From positions 788-64,787 of the IMG/VR virus record IMGVR_UViG_3300036945_000454: 64,000 nucleotides of DNA; one strand, written 5' to 3'. Of this stretch, positions 20,157 to 63,299 are shown in pieces (the stretch's first letter is position 1; every line of letters begins with the position of its first letter). The position numbers were made by a program, and so were the translations under genes. The notes under the pieces were generated by a model, which made no database searches, had not been told where the DNA came from, and saw only the letters and a list, made by a program, of their open reading frames with translations. Source of the DNA: a virus (taxonomy: Duplodnaviria > Caudoviricetes).

Positions 20157-20639
20157 ATGAAAACATACATGGTACCAAAAGTGTACCGCCCAAAGAAATA
20201 CCCACCCGTTACACGCATGGCAATTGAGCACGACTTCCTAAAATACATAGGGCTCGTGCAGAAATATGTCCTACGCCACTACGGACTATCGGCCCCTTAC
20301 TTCCAAATGCTCTGTTTTCTGCACTCAGAAGGCATATTTAACGTAAAGTCCATCGAGAAGTACAACCAAATCCTCGGATTTGCCCCAAAAAAGCGTAAAG
20401 ATATGATTGACATGGGTCTCATCAGCCTTTTTAGACCAGGATCGTACCGAACTGTGCCCATGTATGAGCTTTCTGCCAAAGGTAGAGCCATTATGCGTGA
20501 TGTTTACGCTAGACTTTTAGGAGAAAAGCCAATTACAGAAATAAAAAGGCCCACTAAGTACTCCGAACGTCAGTTCAATAGAGTAGCAAAGAGGGCCAAT
20601 GAGGATTTTAAAGCACAACAACAACGTCCTGAACTCTGA
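20157..20639 (+). CDS. MarR-like winged-helix regulator
   Basis: GLS...QMLCFL, YELSAKGR wing motif; lone plus-strand gene. Confidence 0.55.
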   Translation: MKTYMVPKVYRPKKYPPVTRMAIEHDFLKYIGLVQKYVLRHYGLSAPYFQMLCFLHSEGIFNVKSIEKYNQILGFAPKKRKDMIDMGLISLFRPGSYRTVPMYELSAKGRAIMRDVYARLLGEKPITEIKRPTKYSERQFNRVAKRANEDFKAQQQRPEL

Positions 20640-20865
20640 TGACCGTGTACATGTCATCGTTTACTCGGATCCCGTGACCTGCCGCTTTATCAAAATAGAT
20701 AAAGTTACCTGGCATGATCCCTTCGACCGCATTGCCAACGGCTGCCACAGTTGCCTTCTTGTATCGTAGCTCTTTTGTGTCAGATGCTGACATCAATAGA
20801 CCCCCCTTTGTTTTTGTCTCCTCCTCTTGAGGGACAATGAGGATATTTTGGCCAATTATTTTCAT
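20608..20865 (-). CDS. groES: Co-chaperonin GroES
   Basis: EEETKTKGGLLM mobile loop, ATVAAVG, DVVVVL. Confidence 0.85.
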   Translation of the reverse strand: MKIIGQNILIVPQEEETKTKGGLLMSASDTKELRYKKATVAAVGNAVEGIMPGNFIYFDKAAGHGIRVNDDMYTVIRVQDVVVVL

Positions 20866-21365
20866 ACGTATTTGTTTTTTATATTATTATTTAATTCAAA
20901 ATTTATCCTTGCTTGATATGCTTTTTCTTCAGTTTCATGAAAACCTAAATGTTTCTTTTTATTATTAAAAAAAATACATGAAGACCACTTTCTATTAGCT
21001 TTAAAATAAGAGACACCTACATATTTGCTAGAGTGTTTTGATTTATAACTTCTGTGTGAATGATTTTCAATATGTGACACCCATTCAAGATTTTCAACTT
21101 TATTATCTGATGTTATTTTATTTATATGATTTACTTGATTTTGATATTCTTCTTTATTTAAAAATGCTGTAGCAACAATTCTATGAACTAGGTATTTTTT
21201 TTGATTTGAAAAGTTATCACACAAAACAACCCTTTCATATTTGCCTAAATTTTTATTACAAGGCTTTAGAAATGCTTCTTTTTTTCTTTTTAAACTCTTT
21301 ACTCTTCCTAGATTACTTATTTCATATAAGCCTTCATAGTCCTTAATTGGTTTCCAGATTTCCAT
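20862..21365 (-). CDS. NUMOD4-HNH-AP2-like homing endonuclease
   Basis: EIWKPIKDYEGLYEISNLGRVKS, VHRIVA, VNHIN...DN...NLEW, SSKYVGV. Confidence 0.9.
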   Translation of the reverse strand: MEIWKPIKDYEGLYEISNLGRVKSLKRKKEAFLKPCNKNLGKYERVVLCDNFSNQKKYLVHRIVATAFLNKEEYQNQVNHINKITSDNKVENLEWVSHIENHSHRSYKSKHSSKYVGVSYFKANRKWSSCIFFNNKKKHLGFHETEEKAYQARINFELNNNIKNKYV

Positions 21366-21460
21366 AAAACAAAACCCCCAACGATTGCAGCGAAGGGGGC
21401 GGTCAAGTTTCCTTGATAATCCGAATTAGTAAGCTGCAATATTACCAACTCGGATTTGTA
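21366..21460 (-). ncRNA. Candidate kissing-loop leader RNA A
   Basis: Promoter TATATTTG 21465-21472; 15-bp hairpin with loop UAUUGCAGC; UCAAG-GAAA-CUUGA hairpin; CCCCC/GGGGG hairpin containing GCUGCAAU; U-tract then ATG. Confidence 0.65.
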
Positions 21461-21488
21461 TATGCAAATATAATTAATATAAATTAAA

Positions 21489-23027
21489 TTATGCCCTAAT
21501 ATTAGTAATAACTGTATCAGTAGAAAGTAATGTAGTTGCTACGCTGACCGCATTTCGCACGGCCTCCTTTGTCACCTTTGTCGGGTCGATTATCCCACTC
21601 TCCATCATGTTAGCCATCTCCATGCTCACCACGTTGACACCCACCCCTTTGCCACATGACTTTATAATATTATTGTCACCACCAGCATTCTCAATGATCT
21701 TAGCCATTGGTGAGTTTAATGCGTTGCATAAAATGCTCGCACCTTTCTTGACCGTCTGAACATCTCTCGCCACGTCCTTTAGTGCCACGCCACCACCTGG
21801 CAGGATGCCCTCCTCTAGTGCAGCTCTGACAGCACACACCGCATCGTCCACCCTGTCCTTCTTCTCCTTCTGCTCAATGTCTGACTGAGCCCCAACGTAT
21901 ATCACCGCTACGCCACCACCTAAATTAGCAATTCGCTCCTTCAGGAACTCCTTCTCCACGCCATTGCCCTCCACGTTTAATTGCTCTTGTAGCTCTGCCG
22001 TACGCTCATCCACCAAGCCACCCGGCTCACGAATTAATGTAGTGAACCGCCCACTAATTACTTTCTTGGCACGACCTAGGTCATCGATGCTCACCATCGC
22101 TAAGTTGTCACCTGTCTGCTCACTAAAATACTTAGCCCCAACAGATGTCGCTATGTCCTGCATCAACTGATGCTTTTTGTAGCCAAACTGCGGTGGCATA
22201 ATTGTGCACACTTTAAGCTTCGCCTTAATCTTATTTGCGTTTAGCGTGTTCAAAGCATTCTCCTCAAGCTCTCCAATAATTAATAGTGACCTATTGCCCT
22301 CTAATATAAACTCAAGGATTGGGAAGATGTCATTAATATGACTAATAGGTTGGTCAGTCACCAAGATGTATGGATCGTCAAGCACGCACTCTTGCTTCTT
22401 ATGGTCAGTCACAAAATACTTGCTAGTGAACCCCCTGTCTATCTTCATACCACTAATAATATCTGAGTATGTCAACGCATCCTTTGACGGCTCAACTGTC
22501 ACCACACCCGTCAGCCCCACCTTACTGTACGCATCAGCAATTATTGCCCCCGTGTCCGTGTCACCATTAGCAGAGATTGTAGCAACTGAGTTTAACTTGT
22601 CATCAGTAATCTCGACCGACATCTCGTCAAGTTTAGCCAGCACCTCAACACTCGCATCCTGGATATCTCTTAGCACCTGCGTTAAGTTATCGCTCGGCTC
22701 AATCTGAGCCATGGCCTCATGGATGATCGCCTGTGCCAGCACCATACTTGTCGTTGTCCCATCGCCTGCAGAGTTAGCCGTCTTCTCCGATGCCTCTCGC
22801 ATGATCATAACCGCCAGGTTCTCAGCCGGGTCCATTAAGTTAATTGACTTGGCCAATGTAACTCCATCCTTCGTTACGGTGATACCACCAACATGTTGCT
22901 CTGATTCAATTAAAGCAGTTCTTCCTCTAGCACCAAGAGTAGATCCTACTGCATTAGCAATTTTATCTACACCAGAAATTAACTTTCTTCTACCTTCTTC
23001 ACCAAAAATAATTTCTTTGACAATCAT
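21489..23027 (-). CDS. groEL: Chaperonin GroEL
   Basis: TLGARGR, VTKDGVT, AGDGTTT, EEGILPGGG, GIIDPTKV. Confidence 0.95.
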   Translation of the reverse strand: MIVKEIIFGEEGRRKLISGVDKIANAVGSTLGARGRTALIESEQHVGGITVTKDGVTLAKSINLMDPAENLAVMIMREASEKTANSAGDGTTTSMVLAQAIIHEAMAQIEPSDNLTQVLRDIQDASVEVLAKLDEMSVEITDDKLNSVATISANGDTDTGAIIADAYSKVGLTGVVTVEPSKDALTYSDIISGMKIDRGFTSKYFVTDHKKQECVLDDPYILVTDQPISHINDIFPILEFILEGNRSLLIIGELEENALNTLNANKIKAKLKVCTIMPPQFGYKKHQLMQDIATSVGAKYFSEQTGDNLAMVSIDDLGRAKKVISGRFTTLIREPGGLVDERTAELQEQLNVEGNGVEKEFLKERIANLGGGVAVIYVGAQSDIEQKEKKDRVDDAVCAVRAALEEGILPGGGVALKDVARDVQTVKKGASILCNALNSPMAKIIENAGGDNNIIKSCGKGVGVNVVSMEMANMMESGIIDPTKVTKEAVRNAVSVATTLLSTDTVITNIRA

Positions 23028-23545
23028 ATGTATTTATTTAAAATGTTATTTAATTCAAAATATTTTTTTCTTGCTTCGTATGCTTCTTCGGGAGTCTTAT
23101 GATATCCTAAAAAAACTTTTTTACCATCAACATGAGCGTGTGCTAAATATTTATCATATTTTTTCAGCTTGAACACTCCAACTGGCGTGCCAGTATTAAC
23201 ACCTCTGTAATAATGGCATGAATTTTCACGTGAAGATACCCATTCCAAATTGCTTATGCAATTATTTAATTTGTTTCCATCAATGTGATTTACAACTCTT
23301 TTGTTTTCCGGATTAGGTAAAAATGATTTTGCTACTATTCTATGCAAAGGAATTGTTTTCTTAATCTTGTTTTTACTAAGCAAAACAGAATGATATCCAT
23401 CTCTTTTTAGATGAAACTTATTAAACTTTTCCTTAACATTTCTTTGACTATTCTCAACAGGTCTGCTGAGACTTTTAATTCGGCCCATATTACTAACCTC
23501 GTAGTAAGCTTCGTAGCCTTCAATTGGCAACCATAATTCTTGCAT
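23024..23545 (-). CDS. NUMOD4-HNH-AP2-like homing endonuclease
   Basis: Likely start MQELWLPIEGY at 23545; LHRIVA, VNHIDGNKLNN..SNLEW. Confidence 0.9.
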   Translation of the reverse strand: MQELWLPIEGYEAYYEVSNMGRIKSLSRPVENSQRNVKEKFNKFHLKRDGYHSVLLSKNKIKKTIPLHRIVAKSFLPNPENKRVVNHIDGNKLNNCISNLEWVSSRENSCHYYRGVNTGTPVGVFKLKKYDKYLAHAHVDGKKVFLGYHKTPEEAYEARKKYFELNNILNKYI

Positions 23546-23632
23546 AAAAAAATACCTCAGCAATCCGAGGTGGAAGACTCTTCATGCCGAGGCTTTACTT
23601 TAAGTTCTTGTTTGCAGCTTCCACTCTGCGTT
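23546..23632 (-). ncRNA. Candidate kissing-loop leader RNA B
   Basis: Promoter TATCTTTG 23634-23641; GCAG-AGUGGAAG-CUGC, then CCUCGGCA-UGAA-GAG-U-CUUCCAC-CUC-GGAU-UGCUGAGG, U-tract, ATG. Confidence 0.7.
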
Positions 23633-23680
23633 ACAAAGATAATAATTTCATTTTAGTCTTACAGCTTCTATGCCAAACAA

Positions 23681-37069: not shown

Positions 37070-37116
37070 ATATTACCTTACTTTTTTGTATATTTGTTAA
37101 AAAAATAAGGTAATAT
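37070..37116. promoter_or_regulatory. Inverted repeat enclosing promoter TATATTTG (putative operator)
   Basis: ATATTACCTTA-c-T6...A7-TAAGGTAATAT; the right arm overlaps the ATG at 37115. Confidence 0.6.
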
Positions 37117-37606
37117 GATATATTTTATTAAACACACAGATTTTATAAAGATTGGCTATACTGACGATATATATAGACGATTTAGTCAGTTGCAGGTAAG
37201 TTCTCCAAAAAAGCTAGAAGTTCTTGGTTTAGTTGAAGGGACTTTTGAAGATGAAAAAAAATACCATAAACAATTTAATGAATTTTATAGTCACGGAGAA
37301 TGGTTCTATTATTCTCAAGAACTTAATGATTGCATTTCTATGTTAAATAAAGATTTAATGTGGAAGTATGGTTATGAAAAAAACGAATTTAATGTTTTGG
37401 GATTAATTAAATCTTGCAGATTAGAACAAAATTTATCTTTGGCAGAGCTTGGAGAAAGACTAGGAATTACAGCCCAATCAGTAAAAGAAATGGAAACAAG
37501 GGAGATTCACGGTCAAATATCAATTGGTAATTTGATAAAAGCATTATCTAATCTAGGATATAAATATGAGTCTAGGGCAGTTAAACAACAAGACAATGGA
37601 AAATAA
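37115..37606 (+). CDS. T5orf172/GIY-YIG-like nuclease fused to XRE HTH
   Basis: IYFI...IKIGYT...R..QLQ...E...H..F...GEWF; C-terminal LSLAELGERLGITAQSV. Confidence 0.8.
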   Translation: MIYFIKHTDFIKIGYTDDIYRRFSQLQVSSPKKLEVLGLVEGTFEDEKKYHKQFNEFYSHGEWFYYSQELNDCISMLNKDLMWKYGYEKNEFNVLGLIKSCRLEQNLSLAELGERLGITAQSVKEMETREIHGQISIGNLIKALSNLGYKYESRAVKQQDNGK

Positions 37607-38474: not shown

Positions 38475-38751
38475 AATAACACAATCCTTTATCGATAGGG
38501 TTCGGAAGTATTTGCGAGACAATGACCTTCCATTTATTAACGTGAATGATTCCAAGAATATTATGGTTCTCAGGTCAGCAGGATCGTATCATTATTTAGT
38601 TATCCAATTTTTTAATATGCCTGAGGAGTGGATGTATGATCGCAGACATTTTAAGATTAAGACGGCTTATGCCTTAGACTACAAACAATTAACTAACGCT
38701 ATAGAAAGATACCTTGATGGAACTAAGAGATTACCAAAAGAAAATAGTTAA
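38464..38751 (+). CDS. Hypothetical protein
   Basis: Likely start MASRIT. Confidence 0.55.
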   Translation: MASRITQSFIDRVRKYLRDNDLPFINVNDSKNIMVLRSAGSYHYLVIQFFNMPEEWMYDRRHFKIKTAYALDYKQLTNAIERYLDGTKRLPKENS

Positions 38752-39949
38752 ACAAGGGCTTGGCATTATTAGCCAACAAGGTTTACTATATCTTGCTATG
38801 GAGGTGAGAACAGGTAAGACCCTGACATCATTGGCTATATGCGATGAGTTAAAATGTAAGGATGTTTTGTTTATCACTAAACTTAAGGTTGTGCCAGGTA
38901 TACATAAGGATCATCAGATGCTTGGCTCTCAATTTAAACTTACATGTTTAAATTATGAGTCATTACATAAACTTGAAGGTTTAAACTTTGATGTTATTAT
39001 CTGCGATGAGGCTCACACTTTAGGGGCATTCCCTAAACCTAGCAAGCGTGCTAAACAGGTCAAAGACTTAGTCAAGAAGTATAAGTCAAAAGTTATATTC
39101 TTATCAGGCACTCCTACCCCGGAGTCGCATAGTCAGATATACCATCAACTTTATGTGCATCCTAACAATCCTTTTAAAGAGCATATAAACTTTTACCGGT
39201 GGGCTAATGACTATGTCAAGCTAAAGATTAAGTATATCGGTGCCATGAAGGTCAATGATTATTCAGGTGCATTGAAGGATAAGATTACAGCTAAGGTTGA
39301 TCCGTTGATGATTACATACACGCAAGAGGCTGCAGGATTTGAGTCAAAGATAAACGAAATTGTTTACACGATTCCAATGGCAGCTTCGACCTATGCACTA
39401 TGCGAAAGACTAAAGAAGGACTTAGTCATTCAGGGTAAGGACGATGTGATCCTGGCTGACACAGGTGCAAAACTTATGAATAAGTTGCATCAGATGTATA
39501 GCGGAACTATTATCCTTGAGTCAGGTAAAAGACAGATACTCGATGACTCAAAGGCTCAGTTTATTATTAACACTTTCCGTGGTAAGAAGATTGGCATCTT
39601 CTATAAGTTTAAGGCTGAATGGGATTTGCTTAAGGATGTTTATGAAGATAAGCTGACTGATGATCTTGAGGTATTTAATTCTACTGATAAGAACATAGCC
39701 CTACAAATTGTTTCCGGCAGGGAAGGTGTTAGTCTTAAAAATGCAGATGCTTTAGTGTATTTTAATATTGATTATAGTGCAACTAGTTATTGGCAGAGTC
39801 GAGATAGAATGACTACTATTGATCGTAAATTCAATAATGTATACTGGATATTCTCTAAAGGAGGTATTGAGAAAAAAATTTATGAAACAGTTTTAAATAA
39901 AAAATCTTACACACTTGATTATTTTAAAAAAGATTTTATAAATTTGTAA
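38717..39949 (+). CDS. SNF2-like/SF2 helicase
   Basis: LRDYQ, EVRTGKT, DEAH, LSGTP, QSRDR. Confidence 0.85.
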   Translation: MELRDYQKKIVKQGLGIISQQGLLYLAMEVRTGKTLTSLAICDELKCKDVLFITKLKVVPGIHKDHQMLGSQFKLTCLNYESLHKLEGLNFDVIICDEAHTLGAFPKPSKRAKQVKDLVKKYKSKVIFLSGTPTPESHSQIYHQLYVHPNNPFKEHINFYRWANDYVKLKIKYIGAMKVNDYSGALKDKITAKVDPLMITYTQEAAGFESKINEIVYTIPMAASTYALCERLKKDLVIQGKDDVILADTGAKLMNKLHQMYSGTIILESGKRQILDDSKAQFIINTFRGKKIGIFYKFKAEWDLLKDVYEDKLTDDLEVFNSTDKNIALQIVSGREGVSLKNADALVYFNIDYSATSYWQSRDRMTTIDRKFNNVYWIFSKGGIEKKIYETVLNKKSYTLDYFKKDFINL

Positions 39950-40038
39950 TGAATCGGAGTCGCAGCCGAAACAAGAACTTAAAAAAAGATTCCCGACATG
40001 AAGAGACTGCGACCTCAGATTGTCGGGTTTTCTAATTT
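39950..40038 (+). ncRNA. Candidate kissing-loop leader RNA C
   Basis: Promoter TAAATTTG 39939-39946; UCGG-AGUCGCAG-CCGA, then CCCGACA-UGAA-GAG-A-CUGCGAC-CUC-AGAU-UGUCGGG, U-tract, ATG. Confidence 0.7.
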
Positions 40039-40536
40039 ATGGAAGAGATTATTTTAATTGACATCATTGGATATGAAGGCTTATATATGGCAAGGAATGA
40101 TGGAAAAATCATTAACAAAAATACAGGGAGAATTCTAAAGCCATCTATTACTAACGGATATGAAAGACTCTCATTGTACAAAAACAAAAAACCTAAAAAT
40201 TTTTTAGTTCATAGATTGATTGCAGAAAGCTTTATGGGTAAGCTAAAAGATAAAGAAATTATCAATCATATAAATGGCAATAAATTAGACAACAATTATA
40301 CGAATCTTGAAATATGTTCGCATTTAGAAAATAGTTGTCATGCTTCAAAGTTTAAAACCAAATCAAGCAAATATATAGGCGTTTGTTTTGACAAAGGTGA
40401 AAATAAGTGGGTGGCACAAATAAATATAGGTAGAATCAATAAAAAATTAGGTAGGTTTGAAAATGAAATTGATGCATATTTGTGTCGATTTAATTACGAA
40501 AAAGATAATAACATAAAAAATAAATATTTATGTTAG
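40039..40536 (+). CDS. NUMOD4-HNH-AP2-like homing endonuclease
   Basis: GYEGLY, LVHRLIA, INHINGNKLDN..TNLE, SSKYIGV. Confidence 0.9.
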   Translation: MEEIILIDIIGYEGLYMARNDGKIINKNTGRILKPSITNGYERLSLYKNKKPKNFLVHRLIAESFMGKLKDKEIINHINGNKLDNNYTNLEICSHLENSCHASKFKTKSSKYIGVCFDKGENKWVAQINIGRINKKLGRFENEIDAYLCRFNYEKDNNIKNKYLC

Positions 40537-40784
40537 AGTCTAAAAGAAAAGCAAAGGTTAGAAACAAGTTGAAAAAAGAAGGATATTTCGTTGTTCAACT
40601 AATAAAGACTTCGCCCAATGGAATGCCTGATACAATGGCACTCAAGGGTGGCAAACTAATGTTTATCGAAATGAAACAGCCCCATGGGATTGTTTCACCA
40701 TTGCAAAGGGTTACGCATAAGATGCTTAAAGACCAAGGGTTTGAAGTAAAGATATGGACAGACTATAATATAGACTATGAATAA
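40530..40784 (+). CDS. VRR-NUC nuclease
   Basis: GMPD, FIEMK, SPLQ. Confidence 0.8.
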   Translation: MLESKRKAKVRNKLKKEGYFVVQLIKTSPNGMPDTMALKGGKLMFIEMKQPHGIVSPLQRVTHKMLKDQGFEVKIWTDYNIDYE

Positions 40785-41157
40785 CGAAATAGGAATGAAG
40801 TTCTTAGAGGAGACAGAGTTAGTAGCTATCCCTTCTAGTTTATTTAAATGGATTGAATCGTTCGATGATGATAAGATGGACCAAATTATGGATGCGTTAA
40901 TTCACTTTGACAATCCGTTTGAAGAAGAGACCACCATTGTATTTGCTACTATAGGTAATGATCCCGAGTATTATATGATGGAGGTTGGCCGTGGGTCAAT
41001 TGAGATTGATGATGTGGGTGGCGAAAGAGATATGCTTGTTATTGATACACTATCTAAGATTGAAATTGATGAATTCCTAGATAATGTTATAGCTGGGAAT
41101 AAAATTGTAAACAATCAAGAATTAAAAAGAATTTTACTTAACTATAGCTTATTATGA
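40777..41157 (+). CDS. Hypothetical protein
   Basis: 126 aa acidic ORF. Confidence 0.6.
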   Translation: MNNEIGMKFLEETELVAIPSSLFKWIESFDDDKMDQIMDALIHFDNPFEEETTIVFATIGNDPEYYMMEVGRGSIEIDDVGGERDMLVIDTLSKIEIDEFLDNVIAGNKIVNNQELKRILLNYSLL

Positions 41158-41170
41158 AAACTGAAAAATT

Positions 41171-41524
41171 ATGTTAACCAAAACTGAGAAAGAAAAGTCG
41201 CTTATGTTCCTAGCATTACTTCAGGTAACATATGAGATGGCCGATGACCTTGACTTCAAGGCTCGACCATTTGATAAGCCTATTATCAAAGAGAGAACGT
41301 GGGAGCTTACACGCACAATAAATAAGCAGATATCTAAGATACTCCCTATGGAGGACTGCGATAAGCCAGATTGGGACAACGCTGTCAATCAGCACGTTGA
41401 GGCCGCTGAGAGAATGATGGAGTTCTTTAAGATTGGACTAAAGCTACAGGAGTTAGATCCGGTTAAGGTACAAGGATTCGACACGCAACTAAATATTCTA
41501 CTTAAAACCTACGAAATAGAATGA
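41171..41524 (+). CDS. Hypothetical protein
   Basis: 117 aa ORF. Confidence 0.6.
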   Translation: MLTKTEKEKSLMFLALLQVTYEMADDLDFKARPFDKPIIKERTWELTRTINKQISKILPMEDCDKPDWDNAVNQHVEAAERMMEFFKIGLKLQELDPVKVQGFDTQLNILLKTYEIE

Positions 41525-41805
41525 TCGGTAAAAAAGAAATAGAAGAGCAGGATCTGATAGACCTTGGCTTCAAGTTAGTAGTAGTTAGCAAGGAGGAGCA
41601 TGGAGGAGAGAACGACTTTTATTACTACGTTATTAATCTGTTTGATGGCGATGGGCCATGCTTAATCTCTAATGCTAATGATGAGGTTATTAATTCTAAA
41701 TGGAAGGTAGAGTTATTTGACTATGACAGGTTCTACTTTGATGACGTTAAATCATTAACTGAGTTTATGCTCTCTGCTAAAAATGTCAAAACGAAAAAAG
41801 AATAG
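41521..41805 (+). CDS. Hypothetical protein
   Basis: 94 aa ORF. Confidence 0.6.
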   Translation: MIGKKEIEEQDLIDLGFKLVVVSKEEHGGENDFYYYVINLFDGDGPCLISNANDEVINSKWKVELFDYDRFYFDDVKSLTEFMLSAKNVKTKKE

Positions 41806-43843: not shown

Positions 43844-43875
43844 AAAAAGGGGACTTCTGGTCCCCATTTTTATTT
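43844..43875. terminator. Bidirectional terminator at the strand convergence
   Basis: AAAAA-GGGGAC-TTCTG-GTCCCC-ATTTTT. Confidence 0.75.
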
Positions 43876-46800
43876 TAGAATCTAGTCTTTCTTTTAGTAC
43901 TATCTTTCTTGGCTTTTGCATCCTCTTTGGCCTTTATGTTTACAGCCTTGACGATATTGTTTGATATAGTTAAGAATTCACGTGGAGCAATATTCATTGC
44001 CACCATAGCTCTAGGAATCAGAGATTGCTTAAGAACTTTCTTTTGTTCGTCTGAATATTCAAATGTGTTGCCATACTTATCTGTGAACGATCCATCAAAA
44101 GCCTCGTCAGCACGATAGCCCATATCAAGAATTGCCTCGATACCAACACTAGGCACACCTCCAACGATGTCACCAACTACCTGGGTAACAGGTAACTCAT
44201 CTTTTGCAAAGAATCTAAATGGTTGATCCATTTTCTCTTTTAGGGCTTCAGCTTTCTTATCTACAACAGGAGCACCAAAAGCTTTTTTTCTTCTTTTAGC
44301 CTTGCGACCAAACAAATTTTTCTCTTGTTTTTCTTCTTCTTTCTTAGCCTTTAATTGTTCTTTCGGAGATCCACCCTGGACATAATCCATTAGGTTATTT
44401 AATCCAATCAAAGTAACATATTCAAGCTGATTAGGAATTGGTGCTACAAATTCAAATATGCTTTTACCTACAAATATAGAGTCAGTCCATTTCTCACTAG
44501 CAGATTTTGATCGCATAAATGGCATAGCTTTAGCGATTGCATCCAAGATGCCATCTGTCTTCTCTTCTTCCGGCTTTTCGTATCCCAAGGCATAATATGC
44601 TGCACTTAACAATAACCCTCCTATCAAGGCTTGAATAGTTTGAAATGTATAGGCTTCAATAAGTCCAGCTGTTAAAGATTGAACGGCTTTAACTTTCTCT
44701 TGGGCACTAGATGTTTTAGAAGTAAGCAACGTAATGTTCCTGTTGTTCTTGTCTTTTAAGTTAAACTGGTAAGAAGCAAAAGGGAAAAATAACTGACGGA
44801 TGATTTTAGTCGTAGCATCTTTAGATGCTAGTAACTTACCACCCAATTCGGATATGTTCATATTCTGCTGATCCTGTACCATAAACTCAGCATAGTCAGC
44901 TGCCTCCTCGTTAATCTCGTGATTTTTCCAATCAAAGTTTGTCATATCAACACCCATTGATTTTAGTTTACTTCTGTAGTATCCAAGCCATGCTATGTTA
45001 GCAACAGTAACGTCAGGGTCCTTTAAGAACTTCTCAATATACTTATCACCCAAATAAGATAAAGCTTCGGTAAATTTACCAACCTTTCCTTTATTTGCTC
45101 GCTCAATTAATTTCTCAGCGAAGTCAATAGATGTTTGAGATTCAGCACCACGTAATGAAATTCCATAGCCTGATTTATCTAAAAATTCCATAGCATCCTT
45201 ATCAAAAAAGTCAGCAAAACTCATACCAAAACTACCTAGGTCATCAATCATATTGATGGCAGTATTAGCTATCATTGGTATAGATTGCTTAGGTGCTGAT
45301 GACAATGATCCTAATCCAATACGAGTACCATATTTACTTAGTGAAGTAACAACCTTATTAACTATCTTAGCTTCTTTAGATGAGTATGTGTCTTGACGTT
45401 CACGCAATGCGTTGATGTTAAAGTTTAAACGCTTAAGCACCATTTGTCTGTCATCAAAGTCAGGGAATATTTCTATAAATGACTCAGAGTTTGTGTATCC
45501 CATAAACTGCTGAACAAAAGGAGTAGTTCTTACATCAACAAGTGTTTTCTCTAAAGCAGAAATGTTATTAAAGTCAAAGTCATAGTCTCTAACACGATTT
45601 ACTTCTTTTGTTTTATCATTTTTAGGTAACCCGTCAATCTTTTGGTTCTTCTTTAATGTACCTACCTTCTCTGTGCTAACAACGTCAAATGCCATTTTAA
45701 ATGCACCTTTTACAAGCAAGTCATCAGAAACATTTTCCATTAACTTCTCGTACATATCAGGTACGTAATTAGCATCTTCATCCAATACTATATTGTAGTA
45801 ATCAGCAGCCATTCTTTTAAACTCAGGATAATATTTTCTCCACATATCCTGTACTTCTCCTACTGCAGCTTGATTAATAGGATCGATATTCTTCTTAACA
45901 TCATTGATATCTTTAGCATCCTTAATCTTCTGATAAATAGAATCATATAAATCTGCCTTATCAATTAATTCTTGCTTACCAGTTTTGCGAAGAGCTTCTA
46001 TAGTTAATTTTAACTGCTTCATCTTACGATCAAATTCTTTCTTAACTTGCTCAGGAGTTCCGTTTAGAATCGTTCTAGATAAGTCAGCAAAAATACCACG
46101 CTCAAATATATTCAATGCAGACTTAAAATCCATTCCGTTAGGCTTTGATCCATCAAACTTGTCAGAATATTTTTTAGCAAAGTCGTTAGCAATTTTCTTG
46201 CCCTCAACAAATCCACGAACAATACCTGCAAAACCAGAATTCTTTAAGAATTTAATTCCTGTGTATGTGCTACGGAATAAACCTGCAATTAATGAATCTG
46301 TCTTTGAAATATAAATTGCTTCTAAATTATTGTACAAATCACCTACAGATGCAATGCCACCTAGTATGTTGCCAATTAATCCTTTGTTAGTTATTTTCTT
46401 TAAATAAGCTAATCTACCAATTAGTCCATAAGACAATGGCCGAGCCTTCATTCCTCCTTCAGCGTCCTTTGCTGAATTAGTATTACCAGTATACGTTTGC
46501 AATATAGCACCCATTCTACTAGTTGTACCGTTGACAATAAAGTTTTCTAAAGATTCTACAGCACGTAATTGTTGCTCTAAAGGAAGAGCTTCAATATCCA
46601 TATTTATAAAATCATTAATCATTTTAAAATCAACATCCTGCTCATCATATTCACCTTCCTCAAGCATCTCTTTTGCTGTCTGTGCAAATCCGGCAAAAGC
46701 TTCTTTGGTATACTCTCTAACTATATCTGACTTTGTTGAGTCTGCTGAGTTTGGATTATTTTCTACAGAATTAATGTAATCATTGATTTCATCAAATGAC

Positions 46801-49800
46801 ATATCACCTGAGATTAATCCTGCATCTACTAGATATTGATATTCATCTAATAGCATATTTTTATTAATCTCATCTTGCTTTGCATTTTGTTCAGCTGCAT
46901 ATGCATTAATGTTAGCCAATACAGCAGCACGCTTTCCTAATGCCTTGCCATCTTTAACCTGTACATTCCGTATAGCATCAAATATTTCTGTTGCATAATC
47001 CATGTACTCGTCAAGATCTTCAAGCATTTTAGGGTCAAGCTTTAAGAAGTTACGGACAGCCTGTTCAACTTCGGCAATTTCTTTACCTGTCTTTAAAGTC
47101 TTACGTAATCTACCTCTTAATTTTTGAGCCTCAAGTACTTGTTCTGCATATGCTGCGTTATTAAGAACTTTTCTTGCACTTGCCAAGAATTTCTCACGCA
47201 CAGTTGGGTTCATTAAATTCTTTGCCATGCCATTAAGCAACAATCTTACTTGGGCAGGCTTAAGTTTATTCTTAACTCCCATTGCTTTTATTGTAGCAAC
47301 AACAGACTTAATTTGATCCTGTACAGCCTTAGCACCTAACTTAGATCCTTTCTCCATAGACTTAAGCATACGACCCAAAGCATCAAGTTCTTTGATTGCA
47401 ATTTTACCTTCAGATGCTTGTAAGATTCCAGTAATCTTATCAATCATTTTCTTCTTATTCTCAGCCGTATCAAGCTTACCCTCCATAGCACGGAAAATAG
47501 CTTTTTGATCAGCAGGGGATAGGGCACCTTGCACATTATTTTTAATGTATGTAGCAACTAACTTTCTTGCTGCTTCAGCAAAATCGTAAGCAGTCTTAGC
47601 TGCTTTAGCTTGAAGTTTAAGTTGCCCCTTTAAAGATGCCATCTCATCTACTGTAACTTTCTTAGATTTAATTCCAAGTATTTTTTTTGCAGATGGTGAT
47701 TTTTTTTGTTTGGTTACTTTAGCAGTTACTTGAGGTTCTGTTTTTAAAGATTTTTTAGCATCAAGAACTAATATATTTTTAATTCCAGATTTTAATGTTT
47801 TTTGATCAATATCAGTATACTCAACTGCTTCAAATCCCCTCTCTTTTAATAAATTAAAAACTCTATTAATGTCTTCCTCAGAAAATGCCTCGTCAAATCT
47901 AGGGTCTATTAGTTCAAAGAAGTTTCCATCTGAGTCTAACCCTAATTCTTCCATTATAGCGAAAGCATCTTCTTCACTAGCTATTTTATTTTTGTCTAAA
48001 AAGAATTTTGACACTTCTCCACCAGACATCTTTGCATACTCGTTCGCTTGACTAGCATCTTCTGATACATATAAAGGTCTACCTTCTTCTAATGAAGGCA
48101 AATCTCCACCATGAAATACTTCAATTGTTTCAGTAGGTCTTACTACTTCTTCGGTAGGCTCAACAACTTCAGTCGGTCCTTCGGCTGTAGTTTCTCCAGT
48201 TCCTGTTTGAGTTGTTGTAGTTTCTGTAGCCTGGTTGATGGCATTGTCGATTTGCTCGTCTGTTGCATTATTCTCAAAATTTTGTAGTGTATATTGATAA
48301 GCAATAGACTCAGCACGCTTACCTCTAAAGTAACGGCTTTGCCCATTCTCGGTTTCTAATCTTACTGATTTAACATTGCCATCTTCGTCAAATGTAATCG
48401 CATCCATAGGAGCATCGGCAACATTGACATATTTCTTTCCTGCAACCTCGATCGATCCATCTTCGCCAATCTCAATAGGTATCGGGGCTTTGGGTTCTAT
48501 TCCAAAGTCCTTAAGATCCGATTCGCTTAAGTCAGAAATGTTTCCAAGTTCTACAATCTCTTCTCCTGACTCAAATAATACTTGTCCATTGTCATCAACA
48601 AAAAGGTTACCCTCATTGCCACGCATAGTAAATGTATTATCGGCATCTAAGGCTTGTCCTATTTTTTCGACTTTACCTTCTTGGGTAGGGACTTGAGGTT
48701 CTGCTTGGGGTTCTCCTTCCGCCACTTGGAGGCCACCTCCGGCTTCTGGCTGTACAGGTACTTCACTTGTTGTTTGCTTTTGAATGGCATCTCTTTGTTG
48801 TTTTAATGGTTCAAATTCTTGTTTAAGTTTTTGAAATAATAATTTCTTGGCATCGTCTGTTAAATTAGGATCGTTCTTAATTGCTTCAGCACGTGTTCTT
48901 ATTTCATCAATTTTATCATCAATATTAAATAAATCCCGAGCCTCTTCTTCAGTCAATCCTTCGATTGTATCATCATACTTAGTAGCAATTTGAGCATACT
49001 CTGCTTCTAGGTCGCTTAACTTTTCGTCAATAACTTCATTAACAATAGGGTCATTATCATCTGCTTTTTGCGTAGACAAATCCTGTACTGTATCTCTAAT
49101 CTCCTCAAGTCTCTTCTTGTCCTCAGCCGTGATTAATGCACCAGTCAATAAGTTCTTTCCTGCAGCTGATTGTTTTACTTTTTTAAATGAACTAGAAATA
49201 GCACCAGCACCTGCTGTTAATCCTCCACCAATTGTACCTCCAATTAAATAACTTTCACCAATTTTACGAGCAAGCTTTACAAGATCAATCGGTTCTCCTT
49301 TGTTAATCTTATCTTGAGTCTCTTGAAATAATGTAGTTAATCCTTCAGAAATACCTTCTTCATTAAAGTCTTTTGCGATTTCCTTAAATAGACTTTCTGT
49401 TAAATCCTTAGTAGCTTTTGGGTTGCCAAAAATCTTAGCACCTGCTCTTTTTAAAATCTCATTTGTCTTGCCCTCAAAGAAAGCTTCAGCCCCACCATGA
49501 ATTGCAGATGTTAAGGCATATCCAAGTCCAGCTTTACCATCCTCGTCTATGTCTTCCATTCTTTTACTAGCGGCAGATGTAACACCCATAAGGAACAATC
49601 CCCCGGGCATCATGCCCTGTGCCATATATGGTATGGCATCTGCTAATCCAGAAGTAGCTCTACGAATAACATTACCTGCATTCTCTAAAGATGGCTTAGA
49701 TGCGAACTTGGCAATATCGTCAAACGTATCGCCTTCTTGCTCAATAGTTTTTTCAAGAATTTTTTCTGATAAATTATTCCAATAGTCATAGGCTATTTGT

Positions 49801-50663
49801 GATCCTCTATAACCAGGATTGGCATTGCCCAATACAATATTTCTAACTTCTTGTTTTGCCGCAGCAGGTAGCTTATTAAACTCGTCTGTTTTTCCGTAAG
49901 ATGCTAGTTGTACATCTAGTGCTAAATTGGTTGCATATGCAGGAAGAGCATCAAAAGCTGCAATTGTTTTTGCACCTGCTGATTTCAATCTATTCCAAAC
50001 ATTTTCTAATTCACCAATTGTTGCATTCTTATCTTTAATAGTTTGAGATACAACAGCATCGCTTTTTTCTAATGCATCTTTTTGAAACTTAAATGCATCC
50101 AAGCGAGCATTAAGTTTTTCTTGATCCTTTATTAATTGTTTTTGTTTTGTTATTAAGTTAGGATTACTTTTATCAGCATCATATTCAGCATTAAATTGAT
50201 TAATACTTTGCTCAAATTTTATTCTATCTTTTTCTAATTTACTCGCAGAATAATTTAAATCTTTTGCTTGAGTTTGTTGTAACTCACGTTGACGATTGAC
50301 ATTAGTTGAAATGTCTGTATCAAGATTCTTCCATCCTTTATTTAGTACGTCAAATCTACCTGCAACATCTAACCCTTGTTTGGTCTTAGATGGTTGCAAC
50401 AAAGTCCCCTCACTTTGAGTGACAGGCTTTGCTACTTCTTTCTTTTTAGTTGGTGCGGCTGATAATGATGCCGAAGGTCCAGTTACTACTTGACCGCTTA
50501 AAACCGAAGAAGGCTTCGTAGTTTTTGAAGTAGATGGTAAAGCCGTAGGAATTTTTTTTTTTACAGGTTCGCCAAAATCAGGTAATTCATCTAATGTAGC
50601 CATCTCAAAATCAGGTAATTCATCCAATGTTGCTACTTTCTGTTTAATAGGTTGTTTTTCCAT
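43875..50663 (-). CDS. Large internal virion/ejection (polyvalent-type) protein
   Basis: 2262 aa helical protein; EGISEGLT membrane-type motif; last of three ejection-like genes. Confidence 0.65.
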   Translation of the reverse strand: MEKQPIKQKVATLDELPDFEMATLDELPDFGEPVKKKIPTALPSTSKTTKPSSVLSGQVVTGPSASLSAAPTKKKEVAKPVTQSEGTLLQPSKTKQGLDVAGRFDVLNKGWKNLDTDISTNVNRQRELQQTQAKDLNYSASKLEKDRIKFEQSINQFNAEYDADKSNPNLITKQKQLIKDQEKLNARLDAFKFQKDALEKSDAVVSQTIKDKNATIGELENVWNRLKSAGAKTIAAFDALPAYATNLALDVQLASYGKTDEFNKLPAAAKQEVRNIVLGNANPGYRGSQIAYDYWNNLSEKILEKTIEQEGDTFDDIAKFASKPSLENAGNVIRRATSGLADAIPYMAQGMMPGGLFLMGVTSAASKRMEDIDEDGKAGLGYALTSAIHGGAEAFFEGKTNEILKRAGAKIFGNPKATKDLTESLFKEIAKDFNEEGISEGLTTLFQETQDKINKGEPIDLVKLARKIGESYLIGGTIGGGLTAGAGAISSSFKKVKQSAAGKNLLTGALITAEDKKRLEEIRDTVQDLSTQKADDNDPIVNEVIDEKLSDLEAEYAQIATKYDDTIEGLTEEEARDLFNIDDKIDEIRTRAEAIKNDPNLTDDAKKLLFQKLKQEFEPLKQQRDAIQKQTTSEVPVQPEAGGGLQVAEGEPQAEPQVPTQEGKVEKIGQALDADNTFTMRGNEGNLFVDDNGQVLFESGEEIVELGNISDLSESDLKDFGIEPKAPIPIEIGEDGSIEVAGKKYVNVADAPMDAITFDEDGNVKSVRLETENGQSRYFRGKRAESIAYQYTLQNFENNATDEQIDNAINQATETTTTQTGTGETTAEGPTEVVEPTEEVVRPTETIEVFHGGDLPSLEEGRPLYVSEDASQANEYAKMSGGEVSKFFLDKNKIASEEDAFAIMEELGLDSDGNFFELIDPRFDEAFSEEDINRVFNLLKERGFEAVEYTDIDQKTLKSGIKNILVLDAKKSLKTEPQVTAKVTKQKKSPSAKKILGIKSKKVTVDEMASLKGQLKLQAKAAKTAYDFAEAARKLVATYIKNNVQGALSPADQKAIFRAMEGKLDTAENKKKMIDKITGILQASEGKIAIKELDALGRMLKSMEKGSKLGAKAVQDQIKSVVATIKAMGVKNKLKPAQVRLLLNGMAKNLMNPTVREKFLASARKVLNNAAYAEQVLEAQKLRGRLRKTLKTGKEIAEVEQAVRNFLKLDPKMLEDLDEYMDYATEIFDAIRNVQVKDGKALGKRAAVLANINAYAAEQNAKQDEINKNMLLDEYQYLVDAGLISGDMSFDEINDYINSVENNPNSADSTKSDIVREYTKEAFAGFAQTAKEMLEEGEYDEQDVDFKMINDFINMDIEALPLEQQLRAVESLENFIVNGTTSRMGAILQTYTGNTNSAKDAEGGMKARPLSYGLIGRLAYLKKITNKGLIGNILGGIASVGDLYNNLEAIYISKTDSLIAGLFRSTYTGIKFLKNSGFAGIVRGFVEGKKIANDFAKKYSDKFDGSKPNGMDFKSALNIFERGIFADLSRTILNGTPEQVKKEFDRKMKQLKLTIEALRKTGKQELIDKADLYDSIYQKIKDAKDINDVKKNIDPINQAAVGEVQDMWRKYYPEFKRMAADYYNIVLDEDANYVPDMYEKLMENVSDDLLVKGAFKMAFDVVSTEKVGTLKKNQKIDGLPKNDKTKEVNRVRDYDFDFNNISALEKTLVDVRTTPFVQQFMGYTNSESFIEIFPDFDDRQMVLKRLNFNINALRERQDTYSSKEAKIVNKVVTSLSKYGTRIGLGSLSSAPKQSIPMIANTAINMIDDLGSFGMSFADFFDKDAMEFLDKSGYGISLRGAESQTSIDFAEKLIERANKGKVGKFTEALSYLGDKYIEKFLKDPDVTVANIAWLGYYRSKLKSMGVDMTNFDWKNHEINEEAADYAEFMVQDQQNMNISELGGKLLASKDATTKIIRQLFFPFASYQFNLKDKNNRNITLLTSKTSSAQEKVKAVQSLTAGLIEAYTFQTIQALIGGLLLSAAYYALGYEKPEEEKTDGILDAIAKAMPFMRSKSASEKWTDSIFVGKSIFEFVAPIPNQLEYVTLIGLNNLMDYVQGGSPKEQLKAKKEEEKQEKNLFGRKAKRRKKAFGAPVVDKKAEALKEKMDQPFRFFAKDELPVTQVVGDIVGGVPSVGIEAILDMGYRADEAFDGSFTDKYGNTFEYSDEQKKVLKQSLIPRAMVAMNIAPREFLTISNNIVKAVNIKAKEDAKAKKDSTKRKTRF

Positions 50664-61964: not shown

Positions 61965-62656
61965 TATTGAGCCCTTTGATCCATGTACATTTCTTCTTGC
62001 TTGGCATTAGCCACAACCTCTTGTTCCCGAATACTTGTTCCTGCATATTCGCATATTTTAACAACTAGCTTCGGAAAGTCTTGCCCGGTTAATTCAAAGT
62101 CTTGATAATCGTTAGCACTTTGATTAAACAATGGACTACCGTTCACAACTGTATACGTCCACTTAGGATCGTATGGATACCGAACATAATATGTTTCAAC
62201 ATTGTTAACTATCGTCAACGGGTAAATAGTTATGCTATCTCCTTGCATAACATATGCAGGGTATAATGTATTTGGTGCTGTTAAGTTTGATTGCAATAAT
62301 TTATATACATTGCGTTGGTCAACGTGCTCAACTTCTTTTGAGTTATAATACAAAGCATTAAGCAAAAACCAATCAGTTGGCATTGCAAAAGTCTGACTTC
62401 CTGAACTGTAAGTCAATGGTACGTTTTTGGAAAAATAGTCAATGGTTTGATCCAATTGCTTTGTGATATCAGAATACCCAGATGTTTCTTGACCTTTAAA
62501 ATCAGAAAGTTTTGAATTCTTGAAATCAATAAAGTATTGATTGAAGATTTCTAACTGAGCTTGCTTGGCAAACGAGTTGAATTCTTCTGGAGTTATATAT
62601 CCATTATTATCCTTGTTAATAATAGACATCACAGTATTGCGGACAGAATTAATCAT
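61964..62656 (-). CDS. Head-tail connector (ring) protein
   Basis: INKDNNGYITPEEFN..AKQAQ, YVRYP.DP.W. Confidence 0.65.
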   Translation of the reverse strand: MINSVRNTVMSIINKDNNGYITPEEFNSFAKQAQLEIFNQYFIDFKNSKLSDFKGQETSGYSDITKQLDQTIDYFSKNVPLTYSSGSQTFAMPTDWFLLNALYYNSKEVEHVDQRNVYKLLQSNLTAPNTLYPAYVMQGDSITIYPLTIVNNVETYYVRYPYDPKWTYTVVNGSPLFNQSANDYQDFELTGQDFPKLVVKICEYAGTSIREQEVVANAKQEEMYMDQRAQ

Positions 62657-63156
62657 TGTATGTATTTATTTTCAATACCTTCATTATGCAAAAATAAGCA
62701 TAATTTTCGGTATGCTTTTTCTTCGTCATCAAAGATTCCAATATACTTTTGTTTGCCATTAATATATACTTGAGCCCTCCATTTATGGTGTCCTTTATCC
62801 CATGTTACATTAGGATATTTGCTGCTTTTTTTATACATAAGGCTTCGATGTGAATAATTCTCTCTAAATGAAACTATTTCTAAATTAGATAAATTATTAT
62901 TCAACTTATTGCCATCAATGTGATTTACAGACATGCCTTTATGTTTGCCCCAGAAACTTTCAGAAACAATCTTGTGGACCTTTTTAGCTAATCTGATGTA
63001 ATTTTTACACAATTGTAAATAAAGATATCCATCGTTTGTTTTTCTTGGCTTTAATACCCTTTTATTAAATTTAGATATATTTCTTATTCTACCCAAATTG
63101 CTTACTTCATGTGTTTCCTCATACCCTAATACAGGAACCCATAATTCATTTTCCAT
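62653..63156 (-). CDS. NUMOD4-HNH-AP2-like homing endonuclease
   Basis: Likely start MENELW at 63156; VSNLGRI, VHKIV, VNHIDGNKLNN, SSKYPNV. Confidence 0.9.
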   Translation of the reverse strand: MENELWVPVLGYEETHEVSNLGRIRNISKFNKRVLKPRKTNDGYLYLQLCKNYIRLAKKVHKIVSESFWGKHKGMSVNHIDGNKLNNNLSNLEIVSFRENYSHRSLMYKKSSKYPNVTWDKGHHKWRAQVYINGKQKYIGIFDDEEKAYRKLCLFLHNEGIENKYIQ

Positions 63157-63256
63157 AATAAAAATAGGTCTTACTAAATCCACCGCATCTCACCTCGGTT
63201 TCATTAATAAGACCATTTATGTTTTTAAGTTACGTATTGTGAGATGGTAACTACAT
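63157..63256 (-). ncRNA. Candidate kissing-loop leader RNA D
   Basis: Promoter TATCTTTG 63259-63266; AGUUAC-CAUCUCACAAUAC-GUAACU, then GGUCUUAUUAA-UGAA-ACCG-AGGUGAGAUG-CGGU-GGAU-UUAGUAAGACC, U-tract, ATG. Confidence 0.7.
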
Positions 63257-63267
63257 GACAAAGATAT

Positions 63268-63293
63268 AAAAAAAGGAGGACTTTTGTCCTCCC
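63268..63293 (-). terminator. Intrinsic terminator
   Basis: GGAGGAC-AAAA-GTCCTCC followed by T7 on the minus strand. Confidence 0.75.
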
Positions 63294-63299
63294 TTAGTT

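Follow-up and report, generated by a model that had tools for sequence, protein, structure and literature searches.

A kissing-loop leader RNA that heads HNH endonuclease genes in a phage genome and its relatives

What is the short leader that stands in front of each of four endonuclease genes in one phage genome, and what does it do for the gene behind it? The genes, of the NUMOD4 + HNH_3 type with products of 165–174 amino acids (aa), lie in a stretch of 64,000 nucleotides (nt), hereafter the window, which covers bases 788–64787 of a virus record (IMGVR_UViG_3300036945_000454) that is 64,787 bp long and has direct terminal repeats. An initial annotation of this DNA had described a structured RNA, co-mobile with the nuclease, in which the loops of two hairpins match one another, and had suggested that it acts as an attenuator or translational switch, an RNA antitoxin or a nuclease-bound RNA. 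We find the leader to be a real, uncatalogued folded RNA of ~90 bases, whose loop-loop (kissing) helix covaries across relatives and which forms one indel unit with its HNH gene.

Judged from the upstream sequences and their minimum free energy (MFE) folds, all four leaders have the same order of elements, as had been claimed: a TAnnTTTG box, hairpin 1, an A/U-rich linker, a terminator-like final hairpin, a run of U and the ATG. In every copy the loops of the two hairpins (L1 and L2) are exact reverse complements of 7–8 nt, with letters that differ per copy and agree with those first reported: ATTGCAGC/GCTGCAAT in copy A, GTGGAAG/CTTCCAC in copy B, GTCGCAG/CTGCGAC in copy C and CATCTCAC/GTGAGATG in copy D. 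In the RNAfold structures of all four, each of the two complementary words falls within a hairpin loop, and the stems covary between copies B and C in the way the initial annotation had stated. We take TAnnTTTG to be the Bacteroidota −7 promoter consensus, and on that basis assign a promoter role to the leader boxes. The parts of copy C, the type copy, are as follows, with stems numbered P1 to P3.

39939–39946 (+): putative promoter box TAAATTTG, Bacteroidota-type −7
39954–39969 (+): hairpin 1, with P1 TCGG/CCGA (39954–57 with 39966–69) in the MFE fold
39958–65 (+): loop L1 AGTCGCAG, kissing 7-mer at 39959–39965
39970–39991 (+): A/U-rich linker of 22 nt, including AACAAGAACTTAAA in common with copy B
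39992–40027 (+): terminator-like hairpin, with P2 CCCGACA/TGTCGGG (39992–98 with 40021–27)
between P2 and P3 (+): 4x4 internal loop TGAA/AGAT, a tandem G.A candidate
40003–05 with 40014–16 (+): P3 GAG/CTC
40006–13 (+): loop L2 ACTGCGAC, kissing 7-mer at 40007–40013
40028–40038 (+): U-run and short spacer TTTTCTAATTT, up to the ATG at 40039
40039–40536 (+): HNH-C gene, NUMOD4-HNH_3 endonuclease of 165 aa, whose stop overlaps the ATG of the VRR-NUC gene (40530)

The stop codon (TAA) of the upstream helicase gene follows the copy C box directly, at 39947–39949, and the window contains the linker 14-mer only two times, once in leader B and once in leader C.

The loop matches exceed chance, as the first reading had held. 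Both strands were scanned blind in 8520 windows of 105 nt, by taking the hairpin loops of RNAfold MFE structures and recording the longest Watson-Crick complement between two loops; a complement of at least 7 nt turned up in 13 windows at six places. These were the four leaders and two AT-only coding sites (near 2206 and 14236), which are chance matches. TAnnTTTG boxes number 107 in the window, and the kissing-loop module stands behind only four of them. A sigma-70 promoter scan of the window, which is of little use with a host of this type, gave 71 sites vs 68.7 in shuffles, and a search of it for tRNA or tmRNA found none.

The same element recurs upstream of related genes. Upstream regions could be scanned for 78 of 80 HNH relatives in IMG/VR (L032 had too short an upstream region and L051 no start), and a loop complement of at least 7 nt was found blindly in seven of the 78, with new letters such as GTGAGAG, GTCGAGG, GTGGACG and GGTCAAG. 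Eight further members were recognized by eye, which is less rigorous (L012, L013, L016, L020, L026, L041, L060 and L066). Among these, L060 and L066 appear to be variants in which an unpaired 5' segment of 10–11 nt pairs with the terminator loop, and L013 and L016 to have a three-way 5' domain. A covariance model (R1) was then trained on copies C and B, L041, L064 and L078; it encodes P1, P2 and P3 and leaves the loop-loop helix out. Over 479 kb it recovered its training rows and added new ones: L009, which resembles copy B; L011, which precedes a second HNH gene; L086/L088 and L094; L078:4196-4287, which precedes a GIY-YIG homing endonuclease (Pfam 1e-6); and L097:3523-3616, which precedes a 162-aa open reading frame (ORF) of no family upstream of groEL in the relative G001.

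This model of the HNH upstream regions, a check proposed at the outset, revealed loop-loop covariation that it had no means to impose. In the 10-row alignment A5 the loop-loop helix was paired in 70/70 cells, five of its seven pairs were changed on both sides, and one-sided changes numbered zero; sliding the partner by 1–3 columns lowered overall pairing from 98.6% to 33–42%. Pairing of the loop helix was 100% in A5, 100% in A6 (46 distinct rows) and 99.7% in A7 (44 distinct rows), with both-side changes at 5, 4 and 3 of the 7 pairs, respectively. Slid controls over the three alignments were 23–52% paired, and the observed pairing was reached in 0/500 shuffles. P1 was paired throughout A5 (100%, with 3/4 pairs changed on both sides), P2 and P3 covary as well, and the P2 stems contain G-U pairs. 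Because the helices covary and the stems hold G-U pairs, we conclude that the element acts as RNA, on the sense strand, which upholds the structured RNA first envisaged.

A larger sample was drawn from viral contigs with a degenerate pattern made from letters outside L2, which yielded at least 120 loci. Among the 125 pattern matches listed, 95 carry an exact 7-nt complement of their own L1 30–90 nt downstream. Of the 30 that lack it, ~19 belong to one unrelated recurrent element, L198 is off by one mismatch, and the others resemble chance matches. The recurrent element (TATATTTGTATTGTGAGTAGTGGCGG..., in L098, L110, L113, L123 and ~15 more viral loci) is itself conserved. The same pattern run as a control over 596 Gb of prokaryote contigs gave 68 matches, of which one carries the complement; this one (L221), a true leader, lies on a contig of 7.1 kb that had been assigned to a Dehalococcoidales metagenome-assembled genome and is probably a misbinned phage fragment. 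R1 scored 101 leaders in the 120 listed viral pattern loci. All told, 110 of the 111 listed type C/B covariance-model rows have 7/7 Watson-Crick loop pairs and the remaining row 6/7, with at least 14 different loop sequences, or codes. A B/C-specific DNA pattern produced four matches in viral contigs, all of them chance and in coding sequence, and a search for relatives with HNH-C alone found none. A looser scanner, which took any 7-mer with its complement so long as a 3-bp stem flanked each, admitted far too much and was dropped.

The consensus anatomy was measured on 87–92 distinct C/B-type sequences among the leaders listed. The distance from the box to the first P1 pair is 3–7 nt in 92/92 and 5 nt in 73/92, in a set mostly selected with TATATTTG in the search pattern. 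P1 has 4–5 bp and is closed by G-C; L1 consists of an A followed by 7 nt. The linker measures 19–22 nt in 84/87 and is 57% A and 35% U (92% A+U). The final hairpin comprises a P2 of ~7 bp, an internal loop of the UGAN/NGAU kind, a P3 of 3–4 bp and an L2 of one variable nucleotide plus 7 nt. In the loop helix the A before the 7-mer is invariant and G-C pairs stand at both ends; the loop duplexes by themselves account for −8.5 to −10.5 kcal/mol. The lower stem is G+C-rich and in most leaders is followed directly by U5-6, so that a G+C-rich stem immediately precedes a U-run on the transcribed strand, as in intrinsic terminators. The ATG lies 10–12 nt beyond the stem in 80/87 and is unpaired in the folds.

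Leader and HNH gene also come and go together, and the initial claim of an RNA co-mobile with its nuclease thus holds. A 68-kb relative (G001), with a helicase 68% and a GroEL 71% identical to those of the window, is empty at site C, where only 1 nt separates the helicase stop from the VRR-NUC ATG and both leader and HNH gene are missing. It is empty at site A as well: groEL and groES are ~130 nt apart, again with neither. A 1717-nt contig (run X3) bridges site C, joining 39883 to 40796 through 294 letters, against 912 in the window. Leader and HNH gene are therefore one indel unit, present in one and absent from another of two syntenic relatives, which is the polymorphism expected of a homing-endonuclease cassette. 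Within G001, leaders precede three of six HNH-like genes, each with different letters. Two further observations concern this relative. Its groEL-groES gap holds repeated GTAAC-N5-GTTAC palindromes with the look of operators; and at the place of HNH-B it has, behind a kissing-loop leader, a 162-aa ORF (L097:3037-3525, minus strand) with no Pfam or PHROG family, which may be an unrecognized mobile or nuclease gene.

The genes behind the leader, its clients, are not confined to HNH nucleases. Among 95 listed pattern leaders, 86 had a downstream ORF and nine had no ORF call. The 86 clients included 48 HNH genes (39 clusters at 90% identity), 11 GIY-YIG genes, five DUF6291/DUF7833 genes, four BT4734-like primase-like genes and four ResIII/DEAD helicases; the remainder were small groups and singletons, including SNF2 helicases, Lin1244_N and unknown ORFs. 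At least seven named protein families thus stand behind the leaders listed. An RNA antitoxin or nuclease-bound RNA, as first suggested, did not survive this result: since leaders also head GIY-YIG, helicase, primase-like and replication genes, the antitoxin and nuclease-cofactor readings fall away. The codes are shuffled among client families, and GTGGAAG is the commonest ahead of primase-like and helicase genes. Where one locus has two leaders, their codes differed in 11/11 independent loci listed (chance probability ~0.09 from code frequencies), and there are four codes in the window and four in G001. These numbers are no more than suggestive of distinct codes that prevent cross-talk between copies, as the initial annotation had proposed.

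What, then, does the leader do? It probably sets the output of the gene behind it, and of the functions first put forward "attenuator or translational switch" appears, from sequence, to be the best reading. More specifically, we propose a self-contained attenuator close to the promoter, in which the 5' hairpin locks the terminator hairpin, a model to which we give about an even chance. The module would consist of a host-type TAnnTTTG promoter, a 5' leader RNA of ~90 nt and an A/U-rich start region, and its transcript is predicted to start at or beside the P1 hairpin. L2, an 8-nt apical loop, would pair with the P1 loop through 7 Watson-Crick bp to give an intramolecular kissing complex (a pseudoknot). 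That helix could form once L2 is made and before the 3' strand of P2, and would prop up the weak P3 of 3–4 bp; P2 would then close fast, and a fixed share of polymerases would stop ahead of the ORF. Because P3 seems too weak alone and the kissing helix would form early, we read the loop contact as helping termination. The contact would also make the fold independent of flanking sequence, and the gene behind the module, with the genes coupled to it, would be dosed independently of the place of insertion. Such location-independent dosing would suit a free-standing homing-endonuclease gene (HEG) cassette inserted between a stop codon and the next start. With a terminator signature between promoter and ORF, some of the transcripts would be expected to terminate as an RNA of ~90 nt. 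The leader hairpin does not seem to be there to end the upstream operon, since copy D has a terminator of its own upstream of the promoter.

Several points weigh against this attenuator model. The genes downstream of the cassettes, groEL, groES, VRR-NUC and a virion protein gene, overlap the HNH stop codons. The sign of the loop effect could be the reverse of the one assumed here. A −33 TTG is present in only 22/92 leaders. A simple terminator scan misses all four leader hairpins because its loop limit is 8 nt, and flags only an alternative short hairpin in copy B. Finally, the pattern behind most of the 111 covariance-model rows fixes the first two letters and the last letter of the L1 7-mer, and many rows are relatives, so that independent compensatory events are far fewer than paired cells.

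The same parts might instead make a regulated switch, an idea that we entertain as a tentative second choice. The kissing complex would then be the read-through (antiterminator) state, as in the guanidine-IV riboswitch, or the mark for an N/Q-like, put-like or Rop-like factor, and the terminator would be passed only at a certain time of infection. In the guanidine-IV riboswitch (mepA motif), according to PMC11611296, a 5' hairpin and a linker precede a second hairpin, which forms the upper portion of an intrinsic terminator, and the apical loops kiss. The order of elements is the same as in the phage leaders, and in that riboswitch the kissing loop hinders completion of the terminator stem. 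A plain attenuator would not need the invariant A, the G-C ends of the loop helix, the tandem G.A-type internal loop or the narrow range of linker lengths; the clients are early or replication genes and HEGs, and essential downstream genes need read-through. All five helices nevertheless covary together, and the linker of 19–22 nt seems long enough, by geometric estimate, to let the kissing loop form alongside the complete stem, whereas in guanidine-IV the contact opposes the terminator because the linker is short. The likeness, a kissing loop between a 5' hairpin and a terminator-embedded hairpin, is one of architecture only. Guanidine-IV has conserved, guanidine-binding loop letters and precedes exporter genes; in the phage leaders the letters vary freely and the genes are HNH, GIY-YIG, helicase, primase-like, DUF6291 and others, with no conserved ligand-type pocket and no metabolic logic to the set. 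Inspection by eye for a second conserved antiterminator pairing showed that P1 of copy C (UCGG/CCGA) also matches P2, a match that is not kept in copy B or L078.

A further reading, which we consider unlikely, takes the loop letters as a natural set of orthogonal address codes: in a Bacteroidota phage, each transcription unit or selfish cassette would have a kissing pair to itself. Termination could then be gated unit by unit, either through leader RNAs of matching code that act in trans or through a factor able to recognize the kissing complex. If true, this would be an RNA-only, programmable and previously undescribed layer of phage gene timing.

That the leader serves RNA stability or insulation strikes us as quite unlikely. 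A 5' hairpin locked to a 3' hairpin would form a compact, nuclease-resistant leader that protects the 5' end of the mRNA and keeps the A/U-rich start free of pairing with flanking sequence, and the U-run would mainly be where ribosomes land in a host without Shine-Dalgarno sites. P1 does lie at the predicted 5' end, the spacing from hairpin to ATG is constant ahead of unrelated genes, and the module is shuffled among gene families. Still, every variant seen retains a G+C-rich stem with a U-run directly behind it, the canonical mark of a terminator, and protection alone would not require the terminator loop as partner.

Very improbable, in our judgement, is a trans-acting small RNA, in which terminated ~90-nt leaders would serve as a type-III-like antitoxin or nuclease cofactor, as code-specific regulators of sister transcripts like C4 of phage P1, or as multimers like phi29 pRNA. 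In ToxIN, a type III toxin-antitoxin system, the promoter is followed by a structured RNA, then by a terminator that fixes the ratio of RNA to protein and then by the gene of a toxic enzyme, and this order resembles that of the HNH cassettes. The ToxIN antitoxin, however, consists of 36-nt repeats in tandem, which the toxin, an RNase, cuts. The phage leader has no tandem repeats (0 rows from Tandem Repeats Finder over 39800–40200), the enzymes behind it are DNases, many clients are not toxic, and helicase, primase-like and replication-initiator genes share the same leader, so that it is not specific to one toxic protein family. The C4 antisense RNA of phages P1 and P7 offers short loops that pair with matching a/b sites of the same operon transcript, with letters that differ between related phages and define specificity; it is processed, acts on the ribosome-binding site and has an Rfam model. 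Unlike C4, our leaders have no Rfam match, and their loop partner is the terminator loop and not the start region. The differing codes of the two-leader loci, the window and G001 would fit regulators of this kind, yet they carry the chance probability given above, and with the partners ~50 nt apart in one RNA, self-pairing should win.

Three weaker ideas were rejected: occlusion by a ribosome at an upstream stop beside P1 (the stop is 5 nt from P1 in copy C and ~50 nt in copy A), a riboswitch proper (variable loops, mixed gene set) and a DNA cruciform or protein operator (G-U pairs in the stems).

The attenuator model finds its nearest precedents in other phages. In T-even phages, terminators and hairpins keep the expression of free-standing HEGs low, so that the host phage tolerates their insertion (PMC2988022); examples are internal terminators (mobE/segF) and hairpins that sequester the ribosome-binding site (I-TevI/II/III, segB and Aeh1 mobE). 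Seven T4 HEG cassettes lack a promoter, and simple hairpins hide the Shine-Dalgarno site. The cassettes described here differ in having their own promoter, an ATG outside the hairpin and, as the defining trait, a covarying loop-loop contact. Lambdoid phages place a promoter, a short non-coding leader and an intrinsic terminator ahead of genes (PR', 6S RNA and tR'), and Q opens the terminator. That unit occurs once per genome, has no kissing loop and needs promoter-bound Q for read-through; the phage leaders, unlike it, occur several times per genome, each with its own loop letters. We know of no Q-like factor for kissing-loop leaders.

The initial annotation did not recognize the leader as a described family, and a search with covariance models agrees. 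Rfam 15 gave no match anywhere in the window at the gathering threshold, and with E relaxed to 5 it gave, in the 13.3 kb that surround the four genes, eight weak rows, none on a leader. No description of the motif was found in the literature covered, which did not extend to the supplementary tables of PMC10690425 (>10,000 candidate viral RNAs); in the portion of its main text available, HNH is not mentioned. Cultured Flavobacterium phages do carry the leader, with 34 records matching one (76.9% over 99 nt). In MN812220.1, R1 scores 75.4 bits directly ahead of the NUMOD4 endonuclease gp034, and a second, variant leader with an 8-bp loop pair and a different code precedes gp037 and a helicase. 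The main text of the genome paper on these phages does not contain the words endonuclease, terminator, hairpin or promoter. Against cultured phages, neither megablast of 38700–41800 nor blastn of leader C produced a match. Because cultured Flavobacterium phages carry it, the function of the leader is testable now.

Phage biology gains from this more than 100 examples of a widespread and sharply defined RNA fold with near-perfect compensatory change in a tertiary contact. The host group is the Bacteroidota, in which gene-expression signals are poorly known. These bacteria do not use Shine-Dalgarno initiation. The findings indicate how homing-endonuclease cassettes can come with a promoter, a leader and a start region of their own and be coupled to the gene that follows. 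The leaders also amount to a natural library of orthogonal 7-bp kissing pairs on a terminator, of direct use in RNA engineering.

The remaining copies, with the genes that they head, are as follows.

21363–21472 (−): copy A leader, a three-hairpin variant with a long P1, a GAAA-tetraloop hairpin and a C5/G5 terminator; z −4.6 for the leader
21433–21440 and 21384–21391 (−): copy A loops L1 and L2, respectively
20862–21365 (−): HNH-A gene, headed by copy A, between groEL and groES; its stop overlaps the groES start
23543–23641 (−): copy B leader, from the box to the ATG at 23545; covariance-model score 85.1 bits
23618–23624 and 23570–23576 (−): copy B L1 and L2 7-mers, respectively
23024–23545 (−): HNH-B gene, headed by copy B; its stop overlaps the groEL start
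63154–63266 (−): copy D leader
63239–63246 and 63186–63193 (−): copy D loops L1 and L2, respectively
62653–63156 (−): HNH-D gene, headed by copy D; its stop overlaps the start of a virion protein gene

The copy A architecture is kept in a relative (L092) with its letters changed, and in a relative of copy D (L010/L091) the loop letters are kept and stem pairs are changed on both sides. Copy B has an alternative fold in which the 3' strand of P2 pairs with a nearby CCUCGG, made of the P3 3' strand and the internal loop (23554–23571, minus strand); the result would be a short 7-bp terminator hairpin that breaks P3, and it is absent in copy C. Directly upstream of the promoter box of copy D, at 63272–63295, is a canonical, strong, bidirectional terminator-like hairpin of 10 bp.

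Comparison of ORF 40039–40536 with the window by tblastn gave four strong matches (E 3e-108 to 4e-21) and three noise rows with E>1. The label NUMOD4-HNH-AP2 first given to these genes stands in its first two parts: Pfam finds HNH_3 (5.4e-14) and NUMOD4 (2.4e-07) in the HNH-C protein, and the AP2 part falls below the Pfam threshold (19.6 bits vs a cut-off of 33.3). The listed ORFs of copies B and D begin too early; the likely starts are 23545 and 63156. Elsewhere the window encodes a portal, a large terminase, a tail fibre, a primase/helicase, GroEL and GroES. The phage's own GroEL (21489–23027) and GroES (20608–20865), both on the minus strand within 20608–23027, have HNH cassette A between them and cassette B ahead. 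The largest phage gene is an ORF of 2262 aa (43875–50663, minus strand) with no PHROG match at E 1e-5. A 163-aa protein encoded at 37115–37606 on the plus strand, without a kissing-loop leader, has MUG113/T5orf172 (GIY-YIG-like) and HTH_3 domains, and may be the product of another nuclease-type gene.

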